Both the position numbers and the translations under genes were made by a program. From an uncultured Poribacteria bacterium (GTDB lineage Bacteria; Poribacteria; WGA-4E; WGA-3G), in assembly GCA_951813565.1 (NCBI GenBank), contig OX638351.1:2496001-2560000 (forward strand): 64,000 bases of DNA. The letters run 5' to 3'. The notes under the pieces are model-generated. The model saw only the letters and a list, made by a program, of their open reading frames with translations. It had not been told where the DNA came from and did no database searches. This document shows, one piece after another, positions 1 through 11,034 of the stretch (the stretch's first letter is position 1; each line of letters opens with the position of its first letter).

Positions 1-538
1 AAACACCCAGTCTATAATATCCAAGAAAAACTTCTGAATCTGTTAGACCGGTGTAGGTTTCATTGCGATGATGGATAAACCCATTCTCTTCAATCGCTTC
101 CCATTGTTCTTGAGTATATTCAACACCGTCAATCTTCTCAATAGTTGCTTCTTGAACTTTGGATTCATAAGGGAGGTTTGCTTCCAATATCCATTGAGAA
201 CCGAGTAGATATTTTAACCCAACATCAAAGCGATAAACGTTTAAGACGACATGATGTCTATGCTCTGGGACTTTGTCTATTTTTCGGTTTCCGTTTAGAC
301 TAATGAAAACTCCTTCATCTTCAAGATGTCCACCTTGTGCATCAAACCACCGCATCGTGCTGAAAGAGGCTTGAAATCTTTTGCTATCTGAAGTCAAACT
401 GACTCCACCCATCCCGCCACGTGGGATTGCGGGATTGCTTCAGGCGCCTCAGCTTTCTTGCCCAAACACATTATGTAGAACACCGAAAGGAAAAAGAAAC
501 TGAAGGATTAGTAGTGCGTAAAAAATTTTTGTTTCCAT
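1..538 (-). CDS. Partial (runs off window) exported/outer-membrane protein with two in-frame TGA codons (UxxU); candidate selenoprotein
   Basis: Manual translation from ATG 538: METKIFYALLILQFLFPFGVLHNVFGQES-TGA-G-A-TGA-SNPAIPRGGMGG...EANLPYESK...HHRNETYTGLTDSEVFLGYYRLGV. Frame is open to position 1 apart from TGA at 449-451 and 440-442. Confidence 0.7.
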
Positions 539-615: not shown

Positions 616-1563
616 CTATAACTTTGTCTGTTCTGTTTTGAGGTTTAGCCACGCCATTTCATCGTGGGAGAGTTGAAGATTCAATGCGCCGAGGGAAGAT
701 TTCATCTCTACTAAATTAGCTGGACCAACAATCGGAAAAATCGGAAAGGGAAGATTAATGCAATATGCAAGCGAGACTTGAATGGCGGAAAAGCCGTATT
801 TTTCACCTAATTGTTTTGCGCGTGCCAGCCTTTCAAAGTTATCTTCGTTGTAATAGACACGCACCATATCTCCGTTATCTCTGTTTTCAGGCGTAAATGC
901 ACCGCTGAAGAACCCACGTGCTTGGGATGACCATGGCATTAACGGAAATTGATTCTCCACATGCCAACGGCGTGCGTCATCATCAACGCAAACACATCCA
1001 CCCCACATCGGTTCCATTGGGACCGCGAGGCTGATGTTGTTACTACATGCAACGAACCCGCTTAACCCGTGTTCTTCGGCGTATGTATTTGCTTCAATAA
1101 TACGCTGGGGTTCCCAGTTAGAAGCTGCGATGGCTCGGATACGCCCTGCATCTATCTCTTCATTCAAATAATCAATTATTGTGCTAACCGGAATCTCTAC
1201 ATCGTCTCTGTGAAGCATATAAAGATCAATATAATCTGTCTGGAGACGTACGAGATTTTCGTCAAGGTCTTGTTTAACGTATTCTGGTGAAACGCGGCGT
1301 GGAACACCGCCTTGTGGGTGTCCTCCTTTATCTATTAAGAATACCTCGTCTCTATTTCCACGTTCCTGCATCCAAAGACCGATTAACTTTTGACTATTCC
1401 CGCCTCCATAGATGTGCGCCGTGTCCAAAGCATTTCCACCTACTTCAAAGAATGTATCAAGCATCTCGGTGCTGTGGTCGAAACTTGCAGGTGAATACAT
1501 CATAGTTCCCAGAATCAGTTGTGAAATTTCTTGGTCAACTCCGGGAATTTTTATACGCTTCAT
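616..1563 (-). CDS. Aldo/keto reductase
   Basis: LILGT, DTAHIYG, LQTDYIDLYMLH, WSSQARG motifs. Confidence 0.9.
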   Translation of the reverse strand: MKRIKIPGVDQEISQLILGTMMYSPASFDHSTEMLDTFFEVGGNALDTAHIYGGGNSQKLIGLWMQERGNRDEVFLIDKGGHPQGGVPRRVSPEYVKQDLDENLVRLQTDYIDLYMLHRDDVEIPVSTIIDYLNEEIDAGRIRAIAASNWEPQRIIEANTYAEEHGLSGFVACSNNISLAVPMEPMWGGCVCVDDDARRWHVENQFPLMPWSSQARGFFSGAFTPENRDNGDMVRVYYNEDNFERLARAKQLGEKYGFSAIQVSLAYCINLPFPIFPIVGPANLVEMKSSLGALNLQLSHDEMAWLNLKTEQTKL

Positions 1564-4634: not shown

Positions 4635-5984
4635 TTAAGATAACCCTTCTAAACTCCCTGTACTATCCCCTAATTGCTGCAAATTAACATCCATTCGATT
4701 AAGCATAGACAACCAAAGATTATTGAGCGGCGTTTCCTTTGGATATTGGATATGTCGTCCACTCTTAATCGTGCCACACCCTTGACCAGCTAATAGAATT
4801 GGAAGATCGTGATGGCTATGGCGGTTGCCATCAGAATTTCCACTACCGTATAAAATCATAGAATGGTCAAGTAGTGTTCCTTCCCCTTCAGGAATGGAGT
4901 CAAGTTTTTCCAGTAGGTATGCAAGCTGCTGTGTATGCAAAATGTCTATTTTCCGAATTTTCTCTATTTTTGCTTTATCTCCACCATGATGCGATAAATT
5001 ATGGTGTCCATCAGTAATATTGATAGTCGGATATGTCTTGTTACTACCTTCATTTGCTAACGTAAAGGTCACAATTCGGGTTACATCTGTTTGGAATGCA
5101 AGAGCAATCAGGTCCAACATCAGGTGAACATGCTCTTGGAAATCTGCCGGAATTTTCTCTGGTGCAGTGTAATCAGGATTTTCGATTGGTGGGAACTTTT
5201 CTGCCGATTCTATTCTCATCTCAATGTCGCGAATAGCAGAGAAGTATTCATCAAGTTTTCGCGCATCGTTTCCGCTGACCTGTCGAATCAGGTCTTTTGA
5301 ATCCTGTCTAACAAAGTCAAGAATACTTTTTCGTTCTTCATCGCGTTGTAGTTTTTCAGTGTTAGGCTCGGTAGAAAATAGGCGTTCAAAAGCGAGTTTC
5401 GGATTAACCTCTTTCGGAAGCGGTTGGGTTGCAGACTTCCATGCCATCGTTGCTGAATAGACGCAGCTATAACCGGAGTCGCAATTGCCGGCTCTGTAAC
5501 CGGGATCAATGCCAAGTTCAAGTGAAGGTAACCGTGTTTGATCGCCGATATGTGATGCTGCGGCTTGGTCGACAGAAATACCTGCGTGAATATCCGTACC
5601 GCTCGTTTTGCGCGGCTGTGCGCCTGTGAGGAACGCCGCCATTGCTCTGGCATGATCGCCTCCGCCATCACCATTGGCGCGTGCTTTATCGGCTGTCAAC
5701 CCACTGAGGACCAACATTTTTTCTTTTACGTTTACAAGCGGTTTTAAGATGTCCGTGAGTTCATAACTTGTCCCTACCTGTTTCGGTGTCCAATTCTCCA
5801 TGATTTTCCCATTGGGAACATAGAGGAATGCCATCCGATTCGGTGTTACTTGTTCTGTTACACCTTTCGTGGCTGCGGTTGCCCAACTTGTGAGTGGACC
5901 CATCGATTCTAACCACGGTAGTGCTATGCTGACACCTAACCCGCGTAAAAATGTTCTACGTGAAAGTTGTTTTGATTTTTTCAT
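4635..5984 (-). CDS. DUF1552 domain protein
   Basis: LSRRTFLRGLGVSIALPWLESM, SVDQ, LPSLELG, LAFQTDVTR, HHNLSHH, GTLLDHS. Confidence 0.92.
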   Translation of the reverse strand: MKKSKQLSRRTFLRGLGVSIALPWLESMGPLTSWATAATKGVTEQVTPNRMAFLYVPNGKIMENWTPKQVGTSYELTDILKPLVNVKEKMLVLSGLTADKARANGDGGGDHARAMAAFLTGAQPRKTSGTDIHAGISVDQAAASHIGDQTRLPSLELGIDPGYRAGNCDSGYSCVYSATMAWKSATQPLPKEVNPKLAFERLFSTEPNTEKLQRDEERKSILDFVRQDSKDLIRQVSGNDARKLDEYFSAIRDIEMRIESAEKFPPIENPDYTAPEKIPADFQEHVHLMLDLIALAFQTDVTRIVTFTLANEGSNKTYPTINITDGHHNLSHHGGDKAKIEKIRKIDILHTQQLAYLLEKLDSIPEGEGTLLDHSMILYGSGNSDGNRHSHHDLPILLAGQGCGTIKSGRHIQYPKETPLNNLWLSMLNRMDVNLQQLGDSTGSLEGLS

Positions 5985-6156
5985 AACTGTATCTTTTACT
6001 CCTTTGTCCTGTTTCATTTGCGAAACAGATCACAATTATAATCTGTGAATTTGTACGGAGTTGATGTTATATTATAATTCAATTTGTGATAATTTGCAAC
6101 TATAGTAAAATCTGAAAAAATATGGATATTGCCGATAAGTGCTCCGATTTAAGTTA

Positions 6157-6265
6157 TACCATTTCCAAAAATAACTTCTCTTAAAGAAATAAACCGTCCG
6201 TAGTCGCGCAATTTATTGCGCCTCTTACATTTTTTCAAAAGAGAAAATAATTCATAGAATTGGTA
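6157..6265. mobile_element. MITE-like element carrying a REP
   Basis: Imperfect TIR TACCATTTC/GAATTGGTA, TTA on both flanks, internal GTAGTCGCGCAATTTATTGCGC. Confidence 0.55.
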
Positions 6266-6331
6266 TTATATGACTAATTGCTGGCAGTAAATACTTAAAA
6301 TTTTTAATGCTACATAACGAAATCTAATAAA

Positions 6332-7381
6332 TTAAAAAAGTGGTGCTCCTTGTGCTTCAACATAAACCGAGTAGAGAGATTGACTCGCTGTCATAAAGAG
6401 TCTATTCCTTTTAACGCCACCGAAGCAGATATTGGAACAGATCTCTGGCAGATGAATCTTTCCGATAAGCGTTCCATCAGGTGCGAAGATATGCACCCCA
6501 TCGTAGCCTTCACCGACCCAACCTGCACCTGCCCACACATTTCCATCAGTATCACACCGCAGCCCATCAGCGTTGCCAGGTGCTGTCTCATAAAACACCT
6601 GTTTTTTACTTAACCGTTCACCGTCCACGACATCAAAGACAACGATGTTTTTTGGTGTGCCTGTATCGGCAACATAGAGTTTATCGTAGTTTGGTGAGAA
6701 GCATATCCCATTCGGTTTTTCCGGTTCACTCGTTACAACTGTGGCTTTTCCTGTATCTGGATTGAGGCGATAAACGGAAGTCGGTAGTTCAAATTCAGCT
6801 TTATGGCCTTCGTAATTGAACATGATCCCGTATCCAGGATCGGTAAACCAGATATGTCCATCGGGATGGACTACGACATCATTTGGTGCATTGAACCGTT
6901 TTCCCTCAAAGTTGTCAATCAGTACAGTAATCGTTCCATCATATTCGGTTCGTGTGACGCGCCGTGTACCGTGTTCGCAACTGATGAGTCTGCCTTGTCT
7001 GTCCCGCGTATGACCGTTGGTATAGTTAGACGGTTTGCGGTAGACGCTTACTTTACCAGTGGCTTCTTGCCATTTCAGAATTCGGTTGTTTGGAATATCG
7101 CTCCAGAGAAGAAATCCGCCATCGCCGAACCAAACAGGACCTTCGGACCACCGCGCACCTGTCCACAACCGTTCCACAACAGCGTTTCCGATTTTATATT
7201 TTGCAAAACGCGGATCAAGGACTTCTACTGCTGGGTCCGGGTAACGTTTTACGACTTTGCCGTCTGCAAATGTATCTGCCCAAGATGCCAGTGGACCCAT
7301 CGCACCGATACAAGGCAGCGCGACACTCACACCAAGTCCGCGTAAAAATGATCGACGTGACAATTGTTTTGAAGTCTTCAT
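6332..7381 (-). CDS. SMP-30/gluconolactonase family protein with twin-arginine leader
   Basis: WSEGPVW, SDIPNNRI, NAPNDVVV, WFTDP, PNGICFSP, DGLRCDTDGNVW. Confidence 0.92.
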   Translation of the reverse strand: MKTSKQLSRRSFLRGLGVSVALPCIGAMGPLASWADTFADGKVVKRYPDPAVEVLDPRFAKYKIGNAVVERLWTGARWSEGPVWFGDGGFLLWSDIPNNRILKWQEATGKVSVYRKPSNYTNGHTRDRQGRLISCEHGTRRVTRTEYDGTITVLIDNFEGKRFNAPNDVVVHPDGHIWFTDPGYGIMFNYEGHKAEFELPTSVYRLNPDTGKATVVTSEPEKPNGICFSPNYDKLYVADTGTPKNIVVFDVVDGERLSKKQVFYETAPGNADGLRCDTDGNVWAGAGWVGEGYDGVHIFAPDGTLIGKIHLPEICSNICFGGVKRNRLFMTASQSLYSVYVEAQGAPLF

Positions 7382-7402
7382 AAGCATATCCATCGTTAAT
7401 GT

Positions 7403-7502
7403 CTATGGTGATTAAAAAAATAGACACTTCCCACCCTCGGTAGGTGAGGTTTTCTAACCTCGCCCGCGCAGAGCGTCCAGAAAATTCTACAATCTACCAT
7501 AG
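7403..7502. mobile_element. MITE-like element carrying a REP
   Basis: Ends CTATGGTGATT / AATCTACCATAG; internal GTAGGTGAGGTTTTCTAACCTCGCC. Confidence 0.5.
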
Positions 7503-7531
7503 TTTACCAAACATCCAGTGTTTTTGTCAAA

Positions 7532-8596
7532 TTAATACCTCAGCAAATGGCCAAATTTACCGGAGACCGAATTGTTCTGCGTTAGATCTGACGAAATATA
7601 ACGTTGACCATACATAAGCATAATCCGATTATGAATGAAGTCATATTTCGCAGAGGAGCAGGAACGAAGTTTATCCGGATATACGAGATAATATCCGATA
7701 CTTTCCGCTAAATCCTCGTTCGGATTCTTTTCATAAGCATAATCCGTTACAAATTCTTCTCTATTTTTAGTAGTTGACCAACCCGATTCACTTTTTGAGT
7801 CTTTTTGCCATCCGCCAAGTTCTGCCCAATCTCGTTTAAGCTGGTCAGAAAATAGACACGTCCATAAAAAATGTGATTTCTCGTGCGCAATTAAGCGGCG
7901 AGTATCATCTGGAAAATCACGAGTAAAAAGGGTTTGTGAAAGTTCAATATAACCTTCACTTGTCCATGCTATACCAGGTGCTCTTATCTTATCATCAATT
8001 CTACGTACCACATATCTTAATTCAGGAATTTTATGTAGTGCTTTCGGGAATTCCTCAAGTATTGATATGAAGATCATCAGGTCTTCATTTTCAAAATCTG
8101 AATAATGTTCTGCTGTTTCCTGTGTGACGCGTTGCGTTAGTTGGGCATAAGACGGTATATCTACACTAATGCCATACCGCTCTTTTAGTATCAGTTTCAT
8201 TGCCTCAGTATTTGTTCCATTTTCCGTTATGAATTGAACAGCAGCGAAAAATAAACGTTTCTCCGGCAACAACATCTGTTGAGAGCCTTCAACTGGAAAA
8301 ACATCACTACTGATAGTAACGGATTTCAAACTGTTTTGAAATTCTATGGTAATATCTTCTTCTAAATCGCTGCTTATCTTCCATATAGAGGGGTGGAAAT
8401 TTCGGTCTGTAGAGAAGGATTCAAAAATATTTAAAAGCGAACCCGCTTGTTTTGTCGTCCACGTAACGTCTAAATACACAGAATATTTTTGTTTGAGTTT
8501 TAAAATCGGATCATCACTAAATGTCTCTAAATGAACTGTATAACAACCTAATAGAAAAACTGAGATGGTAAAGAGAAAAACATTAATAATTCGCAT
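7532..8596 (-). CDS. Putative lipoprotein zinc metallopeptidase
   Basis: Lipobox-like LLGC; HEKSH (HExxH) and YAYEKNPNEDLAES. Confidence 0.65.
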   Translation of the reverse strand: MRIINVFLFTISVFLLGCYTVHLETFSDDPILKLKQKYSVYLDVTWTTKQAGSLLNIFESFSTDRNFHPSIWKISSDLEEDITIEFQNSLKSVTISSDVFPVEGSQQMLLPEKRLFFAAVQFITENGTNTEAMKLILKERYGISVDIPSYAQLTQRVTQETAEHYSDFENEDLMIFISILEEFPKALHKIPELRYVVRRIDDKIRAPGIAWTSEGYIELSQTLFTRDFPDDTRRLIAHEKSHFLWTCLFSDQLKRDWAELGGWQKDSKSESGWSTTKNREEFVTDYAYEKNPNEDLAESIGYYLVYPDKLRSCSSAKYDFIHNRIMLMYGQRYISSDLTQNNSVSGKFGHLLRY

Positions 8597-8598
8597 TA

Positions 8599-11034
8599 TC
8601 AATTAGCCTTTGTACCACGTCGTAACAGAAACGGATCGCTTTTAACAATTTCAGTAATCAAAACGGAACTTCTGTAATCGTTAGCCTCAAGCTCAGTGAC
8701 AATTCGGTCAACGGTTGGTTTGTCATAATATTCTAACCCTCTACCTAAAGCAAAGATAAGCATCTTTTCTGTTAAGCATCTGGCAAACTGCGTTTTTCTA
8801 TTTTTAAGAATCTGTTTTAAGTCTGTTATACCCTCAAACGAAGTCCCATCTGGTAATTGTCCGGCTGAATCAATATCTTGCTCTCCATCTTTCGTTCGGA
8901 ACTTGCCGATGGCGTTGTAGTTTTCCATTGCAAATCCGATAGGATCCATTTTGGCGTGACAGTTGGCACAAGCCGGATCATCGCGGTGTTGTTCAAGTCG
9001 TTCTCGCAATGTGGTTCCAGTAATAGCATCATGGTCTTCTTCCAATTCAGGGACATCTGGCGGTGGTGGTGGCGGCGGTGAGCCAAGTATCTGTTCTAAA
9101 ACCCAACGTCCTCTTTTCACAGGTGAGGTGCGGGTTGGATTGGAGGTTACCGTCAAGACGCTGGCTTGCGTCAGGATACCACCGCGTGCGGGATTTTTCA
9201 ATGGAACCCGCCGAAACGCGTCACCTTTAATTGGTTCTCCTTGTGCATCTCTCCAAATCTCATAATGTCCCCCTAAACGTTGATTGACAAACGTATAGTC
9301 TGCATCAAGCAGATTGAGGATACTCCGATCTTCACGAAAGATTGACTCCAAGAACAGTTCCGTTTCTTTCAACATCGCTGCGCGTAGTTTAGGATTGAAA
9401 GTTGGAAAACGTTTAGGATCAGGTGTGACGGTTTCCAATTGTTGGATTTGTAACCATTGTACACCGAAGTTGGTAGCCAATTCCCTTGCTTTTGGATCTG
9501 CCAGCATCCGCTTAACCTGTGCCTCAAGGTTTGCGGTCAGTAAATTTTTCTCCGCCAGTTCAAGGAGTTCATCATCAGGGATACTGCTCCATAAAAAGTA
9601 GGAAAGCCGCGAAGCGAGTTGAAACTCATCAATCGGACGTGGATCTTCGCTTTGTGGGCGGTCATCTAACTCCAATCGAAATAAGAACTTGGGTGAACAG
9701 AGGATGACTTTAATCGCCTGCTGAATACCTGCTTCCCATTTAGCACCGCCTGCTTGAACAGATTCCACAAACTGAACAAGCTGCTGCACTTCATTTTCAG
9801 TCGGGAGACGGCGATATGCCTTGCGAAGCAGTCGTGTTAGGACTTCACGAGTCTGCTCTGCTTGAGGAATGTCCGGTGTGCAGGCTAATATCTTGAGATG
9901 TGATTTAGGTCTGGTCTCCAACGGTCCTACCGACGTGATGGAACGAATTTGAAGTCTTGCTTGTAGTTCGCCATCTTCAGGTTTTACCATTGCAATTCCT
10001 GCAAATTCGATGTTCGCAATTCGGTTAACAAGGAACCTAATTGTTTGAAGTTTCTTTGGATCACGTGCAGTAATGTCAAATATCTTGAGGATCTTGATTC
10101 TGTTTCTTGTCGTAGGGTCATAACCGACTAACCGTGTAAGTTCATCTGGTGGGGATACATCTTTCAGATCATTGCCTTGAATGAATAGCGCGACCTGAAC
10201 AGGGGTTTCACTTTCTGTTTCAGCATAAAGCGTAGCACGGAAATATGTCTCTACATCGGATAAGAGTTTGAGTGGGACAGCATAAGTTTTAAATGGTCCT
10301 GATTTCCACGGTTCAGCTGCATTTGGATCAAGCAGACGGAAACGTCCATCAGGAACATCTTTGTGTCGCGGAATAAGATACTTTGTGTTTATATAGTTTG
10401 TGGACGGCTTCGGTGGATTTAATATAATAACACGTGTGGCAATTGCTTCTGCTGCTTGGAGATACCGCTCCATCAGCAGTGGTGACATCGTCAGTACATC
10501 ACCGATGTTATCAAATCCGTGTCCGACATCGTCTGCGGGAAAATTTTCAGTCGGATCAAAATCCGCCCACAACAAATCTCGAACGCTGTTTCTGTATTCA
10601 ATCCTGTTGAGTCTGCGAACAGTTATGCGCCCTGGATCCGGTTTTGCCGTGCGACTTGCGTCCTCAAAAATGGCATCAACGTGCTGAATAAAAGATTCCA
10701 CTTCCTCCATGAGAGGTTGCTCTTTCTCTGCTGGCGGCATTTGGCTTGTATCTAACATTTCTAAGACTCTTTCCCAAACATCGTGATTCTTGATCAACGA
10801 TAAGTTGTCTTTAAATGAGTCAAGCGCGAGACCCGCACTGGGTTCATCACCCGCATGGCAGCCGAAGCAGTACTGTTTTAAAAATGGTATACCTTCTTTT
10901 CCAAAGTCGGGAGTAATTTTTTCACCAGTACTGGGTGTCAGTGAAACAATCAACAGTAGCAAGATGAGAAAAAAGGGTAACGCTATGTATTTGAAACAGA
11001 TTACTGATTTCTTACGGAAAATGGTGTTTTTCAT
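8599..11034 (-). CDS. DUF1592/DUF1588/DUF1585 multi-domain protein with cytochrome c motifs
   Basis: CFGCH, RRLNRIEY, LASRLSYFLWSSIPD, TSPVKRG, CANCH. Confidence 0.92.
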   Translation of the reverse strand: MKNTIFRKKSVICFKYIALPFFLILLLLIVSLTPSTGEKITPDFGKEGIPFLKQYCFGCHAGDEPSAGLALDSFKDNLSLIKNHDVWERVLEMLDTSQMPPAEKEQPLMEEVESFIQHVDAIFEDASRTAKPDPGRITVRRLNRIEYRNSVRDLLWADFDPTENFPADDVGHGFDNIGDVLTMSPLLMERYLQAAEAIATRVIILNPPKPSTNYINTKYLIPRHKDVPDGRFRLLDPNAAEPWKSGPFKTYAVPLKLLSDVETYFRATLYAETESETPVQVALFIQGNDLKDVSPPDELTRLVGYDPTTRNRIKILKIFDITARDPKKLQTIRFLVNRIANIEFAGIAMVKPEDGELQARLQIRSITSVGPLETRPKSHLKILACTPDIPQAEQTREVLTRLLRKAYRRLPTENEVQQLVQFVESVQAGGAKWEAGIQQAIKVILCSPKFLFRLELDDRPQSEDPRPIDEFQLASRLSYFLWSSIPDDELLELAEKNLLTANLEAQVKRMLADPKARELATNFGVQWLQIQQLETVTPDPKRFPTFNPKLRAAMLKETELFLESIFREDRSILNLLDADYTFVNQRLGGHYEIWRDAQGEPIKGDAFRRVPLKNPARGGILTQASVLTVTSNPTRTSPVKRGRWVLEQILGSPPPPPPPDVPELEEDHDAITGTTLRERLEQHRDDPACANCHAKMDPIGFAMENYNAIGKFRTKDGEQDIDSAGQLPDGTSFEGITDLKQILKNRKTQFARCLTEKMLIFALGRGLEYYDKPTVDRIVTELEANDYRSSVLITEIVKSDPFLLRRGTKAN

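Follow-up and report, generated by a model that had tools for sequence, protein, structure and literature searches.

The closest structural relatives of the protein described here are the COG4313 channel Pput2725 (4RL8; PF13557, Phenol_MetA_deg) and FapF (5O65), with which it is predicted to share a 12-stranded barrel and an N-terminus inserted into the lumen. The lumen of 4RL8 is plugged by its N-terminal segment, and its proposed substrates are hydrophobic solutes (PMC4493636). The present protein, the UxxU barrel, is only 10-13% identical to Pput2725 and FapF and differs from them by a longer arm carrying a UxxU or CxxC motif and by six conserved His; its relatives, in contrast to the COG4313 channels with their proposed hydrophobic solutes, neighbor metal genes. 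The copper barrel PcoB/CopB (7PGE) is also an outer-membrane barrel tied to metal handling, but it is a more distant fold match (Z 12.5, rmsd 4.2), and the family alignment of the UxxU barrel holds no conserved Met.

Selenoprotein L, a soluble thioredoxin-fold protein, harbors a UxxU motif that forms a diselenide. Several predicted bacterial UxxU families have also been catalogued (PMC13188914, PMC13582414), namely the metal-binding (seleno)protein NF041115, a Prx-like family (PF00578), an FmdB family (TIGR02605) and Group 4 [NiFeSe] hydrogenases, and the view taken in the preliminary description of our locus, that UxxU proteins are rare, has to be softened to that extent. These families resemble the UxxU barrel in having two predicted Sec in CxxC spacing as well as Cys homologues, but they differ from it by their listed domains and none of their models matches the window protein; NF041115 matches just the HMA domains of one fusion and of neighbors of the family. 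Predicted Sec-bearing outer-membrane proteins are few: the FCYXU-type TonB-dependent receptor (NF049945) and the GSU2204 MtrB/PioB-like barrel (NF041027) have Sec in an outer-membrane barrel, as the UxxU barrel does, with one Sec each (PMC13188914, Table 1), and both models are absent from the NCBIfam matches of all 138 aligned members of our family. We did not recognize the UxxU barrel among the 119 families of Table 1 of that 2026 review (PMC13188914), and literature searches, drawing further on passages of PMC9312934, PMC12013277, PMC13326102 and PMC13745706, returned no description of it; BSepDB Table S2 and Haft and Tolstoy 2025 may bear on its novelty. It apparently represents a selenoprotein family absent from the published lists compared, with a SECIS layout that also appears non-canonical.

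The gene lies at the left end of the window, the 64,000-nt stretch of DNA analyzed here (GCA_951813565.1, an uncultured Poribacteria bacterium; contig OX638351.1, positions 2,496,001-2,560,000). On the minus strand, one frame starts at ATG 538-536 with a hydrophobic leader, the predicted signal peptide (residues 1-26, positions 538-461, with cleavage probably after VFG), continues through QES, a first TGA (451-449; predicted Sec30), GGC GCC, a second TGA (442-440; predicted Sec33) and SNPA, and has no further stop up to the window edge, as the preliminary description had reported; two codons separate the TGAs, which is the spacing of CxxC. The window contains the 5′ half of the gene (positions 538-1, residues 1-179), and the same frame runs for 569 nt more past the left edge, ending at TAG C1:2495432, to give a product of 368 residues with no further in-frame TGA and no Cys. 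Over the six frames of the genome, in-frame TGA-N6-TGA spacings occur 5985 times, 35 of them followed by at least 140 open codons; just two of these 35 also have an upstream ATG and a hydrophobic stretch, the window gene and its paralogue (L038, C1:4586046-4587080), which is 55% identical and has the motif UGAU as well.

The TGAs are not an assembly error: a contig from another study's run (X10) covers and keeps both, with none of its 21 listed differences falling on them. In contigs from four RNA runs, of which three are on record as such, coverage falls mainly on the 3′ end of the gene and on its neighbors; a single 71-nt piece spans the TGAs and, as these libraries may hold DNA, it speaks neither for nor against expression. 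A scan for promoters and terminators around the gene gave results near chance level.

We then considered the distribution of the family and of its motif. A homologue is present in 86 of the 101 genomes of the relatives search (source genome included), and a profile search found the family in 123 of 151 genomes sampled across the phylum, often in two copies, with no member in five small distant families. The closest named homologues, among the matches listed, belong to Candidatus Poribacteria. At 71 loci of related genomes (the 30 best of the relatives search plus copies from 40 regions chosen for diversity), we observed TGA/TGA in 61 and TGC or TGT/TGA in 10, the second-site TGA being present in all 71. 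The best 80 of 531 metagenome loci include 79 that show the motif (the 80th is cut by the contig start), with 54 UxxU, 6 CxxU and 19 CxxC forms; these loci are redundant and the counts thus overstate independence. Checked as the preliminary description had suggested, both sites carry only a Cys or a Sec codon in all DNA-derived loci, and Cys at the second site is confined to the CxxC clade among the metagenome loci. A FastTree of 70 sequences, midpoint-rooted and not fixing the ancestral state, groups the CxxC forms in a single clade and places CxxU on six separate branches among the UxxU forms. Two database proteins (P0182 and P0194) have Trp at motif sites, which we read as a gene-caller translation of TGA because they are near-matches to the TGA-bearing loci L218 and L053. 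One copy alone (L077, on G055 C5) has a third in-frame TGA, at a conserved Trp codon, probably a mutation or an assembly error.

The leader ahead of the motif is conserved as well. In 158 of 169 distinct homologues, the motif comes after an in-frame ATG and a hydrophobic core; for the two other frames, the counts are 8 and 0 of 169. Among 150 distant representatives, CxxC-x-NP stands right behind the signal peptide in 12, and most of the others are truncated gene calls. The 120 database homologues listed are all 327 aa or shorter and devoid of the motif, in line with the earlier expectation that annotation would truncate the gene; the gene adds a common predicted outer-membrane selenoprotein family that is truncated in each of its 120 closest listed database entries.

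The machinery needed for Sec insertion, which the preliminary description had proposed to look for, is complete in this genome: selA (607 bits), selB (344 bits) and selD (372 bits) all score above their cut-offs, selD carries an in-frame TGA of its own, and tRNA-Sec (selC, 78 bits) adjoins selB. In the relatives search, selB is present in 99 of the 101 genomes, the source genome included, and the two without it are 80-81% complete. A genome-wide change of the genetic code was rejected: the code is table 11 because TGA terminates 239 of 1288 long frames and the sole tRNA-Trp has the anticodon CCA. None of the four outcomes that the preliminary description named as refuting its reading was observed. 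From these comparisons, it is very likely that SelB and tRNA-Sec decode both UGAs as Sec, and the gene almost certainly encodes an exported outer-membrane protein with two predicted selenocysteines.

Structure modeling, with an alignment of 138 sequences, yielded twelve long strands at high confidence (pLDDT 91.5, pTM 0.88), except for the first 20 residues (pLDDT 51-56), so that the position of the UxxU is not fixed by the model. The best match in a fold search was the COG4313 channel 4RL8 (Z 24.5, rmsd 2.6, 252 residues aligned, 10% identity), followed by FapF (Z 23.6) and then by autotransporter barrels. The model of a CxxC homologue gave the same fold result (Z 25.1) and could be aligned with pre-cleavage autotransporters from its first residue onward, which hints weakly that the N-terminal arm may thread the pore. 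The window protein has no match in Pfam or NCBIfam, and a sequence search of the PDB with it returned nothing significant; PF13557 is matched at E ≤ 0.01 by 13 of the 138 aligned members, and above its curated cut-off by 3 of 27 relatives scanned. The fold search and these weak PF13557 matches agree with the MetA-pathway-type barrel guessed at in the preliminary description. The family is a distant COG4313/PF13557 relative that would work like it, and not a formal member. We have great confidence in the modeled arrangement in which the mature protein would start with QES-U-G-A-U-SNP and fold as a 12-stranded COG4313/FapF-type barrel with the N-terminal arm filling the lumen.

Six His are near-invariant in the family alignment (A1), at positions 71, 95, 156, 157, 213 and 215. 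The codons of His71 (115/116 sequences), His93 (97/128) and His95 (129/129), in strands 1-2, lie at 328-254 of the window, and those of His156 and His157 (137/137 each), which belong to an HHR motif, at 73-68, all on the minus strand; His213 (138/138) and His215 (137/138) are encoded outside the window. Judging from the strand order, the six conserved His would be on the outer face. Besides the motif positions, the barrel domain of the window protein contains no Cys.

The genomic context differs among members of the family. The window gene is flanked by an aldo-keto reductase gene (616-1563, minus strand), 77 nt upstream on the same strand and a conserved Poribacteria neighbor with no evident functional link, and by an unknown membrane protein, with no metal context. 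In Poribacteria, these two and a cupin are the usual neighbors, as is an ABC transporter operon of family 5, which follows the gene in 50 of 197 loci; some paralogues there have a neighbor gene for cation efflux or for an exported His-rich protein. In 42 of the 79 metagenome loci (37 of the 66 having at least 500 nt upstream), a gene for an exported HMA-thioredoxin protein, partial in some, adjoins upstream on the same strand. It accompanies UxxU, CxxU and CxxC barrels alike, was found at none of 118 Poribacteria loci, and has only weak, partial matches in the source genome. These neighbors keep the CxxC of thioredoxin (CGPC in 29 of 39 motifs), and their close named homologues include an Acidobacteria and a Planctomycetes protein. 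A predicted complex of a CxxC homologue with its HMA-thioredoxin neighbor scored 0.00, which argues neither for nor against binding. Nearby at loci of relatives, one representative being scanned per cluster, we observed MerTP genes (6, above cut-off), CusA/CzcA-like genes (6), CsoR-like repressor genes (5) and multicopper oxidase genes (5), and the 27 relatives scanned include fusions to HMA (P0131), to thioredoxin (7/27) and to thioredoxin plus cupredoxin (P0212). The 670-aa fusions apparent in three genomes were rejected; they consist of a genuine TGA stop with a distinct exported, His-rich protein behind it.

The reading we favor, at slightly better than even confidence, is that the UxxU barrel is a gated channel through which a soft metal ion, for example Cu(I), Hg(II) or Ag(I), is taken up or exchanged. 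Handling of a soft metal is suggested by the six near-invariant His, by the HMA and thioredoxin fusions and by the upstream HMA-thioredoxin gene of the metagenome loci; since this neighbor is absent from the 118 Poribacteria loci, the role is proposed for the family as a whole. The UxxU pair on the arm and the six His on outward-facing parts would form a metal-binding path, and the role of the periplasmic HMA-thioredoxin partner would be, in many lineages, to accept the metal or to hold the Se/S pair in its reduced state. The location of the UxxU in the pore, the substrate and the direction of transport are all inferred. Against a soft-metal role stand the window gene's own locus, which has no metal genes, the link of characterized COG4313 channels to hydrophobic solutes (PMC4493636) and the far weaker fold match of the copper barrel PcoB. 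The "metal or redox channel" of the preliminary description thus keeps its status of inference, with the neighbors and fusions of relatives in its favor and the neighborhood of the window gene against it.

The thioredoxin fusions and the CxxC kept in the thioredoxin of the neighbor could also be explained by a redox barrel, a rather unlikely but not negligible alternative in which the UxxU alternates between a diselenide and selenols and, together with a thioredoxin partner, moves reducing equivalents or thiol/selenol compounds over the outer membrane, or in which reduction opens the plug. According to a review (PMC13188914), most selenoproteins probably have a redox function, and the lack of other Cys in the barrel domain of the window protein would be consistent with this. 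However, such a role leaves the six near-invariant His unexplained, as well as the HMA domain and the mer/cus neighbors.

It is unlikely that the protein is simply one more COG4313-type channel, with a hydrophobic or organometallic solute and with a diselenide or disulfide that does no more than latch the N-terminal plug. That Pput2725 and FapF are the closest folds, and that the family-5 ABC transporter operon often follows the gene, would fit such a channel, but the identity to 4RL8 is just 10%, and a structural bond needs no Sec, yet the second Sec is kept at every one of the 71 Poribacteria loci.

Two further alternatives concern the reading of the UGAs rather than the function of the channel. 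Read-through with Cys at one or both UGAs (tRNA-ReC type), or a low read-through acting mainly as a selenium-dependent switch, appears very improbable: tRNA-ReC has been reported to be enriched in genomes with UxxU hydrogenases (PMC13582414) and the first site turns to Cys repeatedly in the midpoint-rooted tree, but the present genome has one tRNA-Sec above the Rfam cut-off and one tRNA-Cys, the other RF01852 matches falling below the cut-off and coinciding with ordinary tRNAs. It is hardly credible that the gene is a pseudogene, that the TGAs are sequencing errors or that a shorter protein starts at ATG 412-410, a codon that lies in the 3′ arm of hairpin 1 (see below) and opens the longest ordinary ORF. 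The short, motif-less database entries would fit these readings, but four families and many metagenome lineages have kept the TGAs together with the signal peptide, no more than 7 of 114 distinct Poribacteria sequences have Met at the position of ATG 412, against homologues starting there, and a barrel without signal peptide could not be exported.

We next turn to the signal that would direct Sec insertion. The two downstream stems pointed out in the preliminary description are both present on the minus strand. Hairpin 1, either a spacer or a canonical SECIS, spans 435-411, i.e. +5 to +29 after the second UGA, and can pair in a second register, 427-411 (+13 to +29), with a loop G at 420 (+20). 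Hairpin 2, the best candidate for SelB binding, spans 407-389 (+33 to +51) and has the loop AGUUU with a conserved G at 399. Folded alone, the hairpins of the window do not exceed dinucleotide shuffles in stability (z −0.1 to −1.6), and their significance comes from conservation over homologues, not from the window fold alone. Over distinct homologues, and without selection of windows, the 60 nt past the second site form more stable folds than synonymous-codon controls in the Sec forms (mean z −1.8 for 146 UxxU and −2.6 for 12 CxxU sequences), but not in 14 CxxC sequences (−0.2), which form one clade and are hence non-independent. Hairpin 2, with the loop pattern N-G-(G/U)-N-N, was recovered under a strict rule in 143 of 158 Sec forms, whereas among CxxC forms the rule recovers 3 of 14 and among control windows 220 of 1652; of the 15 Sec forms missed, 13 retain it, most closed by a U-A or U-G pair. 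Its loop G is present in 150 of 156 sequences even though the codon varies between Ser, Gly and Arg (note that the rule preferred G on ties). Over 77 distinct windows, 6 of its 7 pairs vary on both sides and the covariation score is 0.439 versus 0.240 in shuffles, none of 500 shuffles reaching it; the windows were picked by a pairing rule, which favors this result, and the ~15 rows that are out of register weigh against it.

The apical loop of hairpin 2 lies 39 and 48 nt from the two UGAs and thus exceeds the 16-37 nt between UGA and apical loop of the canonical bSECIS (PMC13188914), while the loop itself fits the published consensus pattern. An alternative is that the second register of hairpin 1 is itself a canonical SECIS. 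Its loop is 19 and 28 nt from the UGAs, within the 16-37 nt range, and its G at +20 is kept in only 125 of 158 sequences. In five other candidate selenoprotein genes of the same genome, we place the loop G at +18 to +25. In the paralogue at C1:4586046-4587080, hairpin 1 has no loop G at +20, and hairpin 2 is closed by a U-A pair. Across homologues, the G of hairpin 2 ranges from +35 to +53; the start of hairpin 1 is steady at ~+5 to +9 and its pairs rise from ~6 to 13 as the spacing of hairpin 2 rises. The two registers of hairpin 1, 8 nt apart, have on average 6.1 and 5.9 of 7 pairs (82 sequences), and, as 7 CxxU sequences show both as well, the second register is not UxxU-specific.

From these patterns, we propose that hairpin 2 is the SelB-binding element and that hairpin 1 may act by shortening the distance. 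A single SelB-binding hairpin, past both UGAs, would then serve the two of them, the two-register spacer hairpin moving it into range of each UGA in turn: with 25 or 17 nt looped out, ~24-25 nt would be left either way, near the +18 to +25 of the five other genes. This layout may explain why SECIS-based searches miss such genes, and with it one can test, directly and on a small scale, how a bacterial ribosome could insert two Sec three codons apart.

Taken as a whole, the picture of UxxU barrels as widespread, uncatalogued, selenium-gated outer-membrane metal channels with an unusual tandem-hairpin decoding signal is a tentative one. If the metal role is true, selenium chemistry would gate metal at the cell surface of sponge-associated and other uncultured bacteria, and in some lineages the HMA domain of the partner may also carry two Sec, making a four-Sec operon.

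Such partners were seen at four loci (L163:5324, L169:2512, L184:5309 and L236:5264), where the HMA-thioredoxin gene has two in-frame TGAs in its metal motif, with U-x-x-x-U spacing, followed at canonical distance by a hairpin with a GGA loop; these operons would total four Sec. Other contexts were observed around members of the family. The CxxU paralogue of genus g5 (L039:2137-3174, L240-L242) is followed by genes for a His-rich exported protein with a weak YtkA match, an RnfG-like protein and a diheme-motif protein. In several Poribacteria clades, the gene is preceded by small Cys-rich, probably exported ORFs (L039:4428-4865, L055:4087-4464, L045:2400-2915), which have no match in Pfam or NCBIfam. 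In one clade (L216:4390-5319, L181:4468-4947), it comes after a BlaI/CopY-type repressor gene and a BlaR1-like M56 peptidase gene. At L001:4002-5033, ~6.5 Kbp downstream of the gene, two ORFs look, by our reading, like a split IS630-type transposase. Elsewhere in the window, positions 4635-11034 hold genes that we take to resemble planctomycete-type DUF1552 and cytochrome-c/PSD proteins, along with a presumably gluconolactonase-like gene whose leader is in common with that of the DUF1552-like gene.
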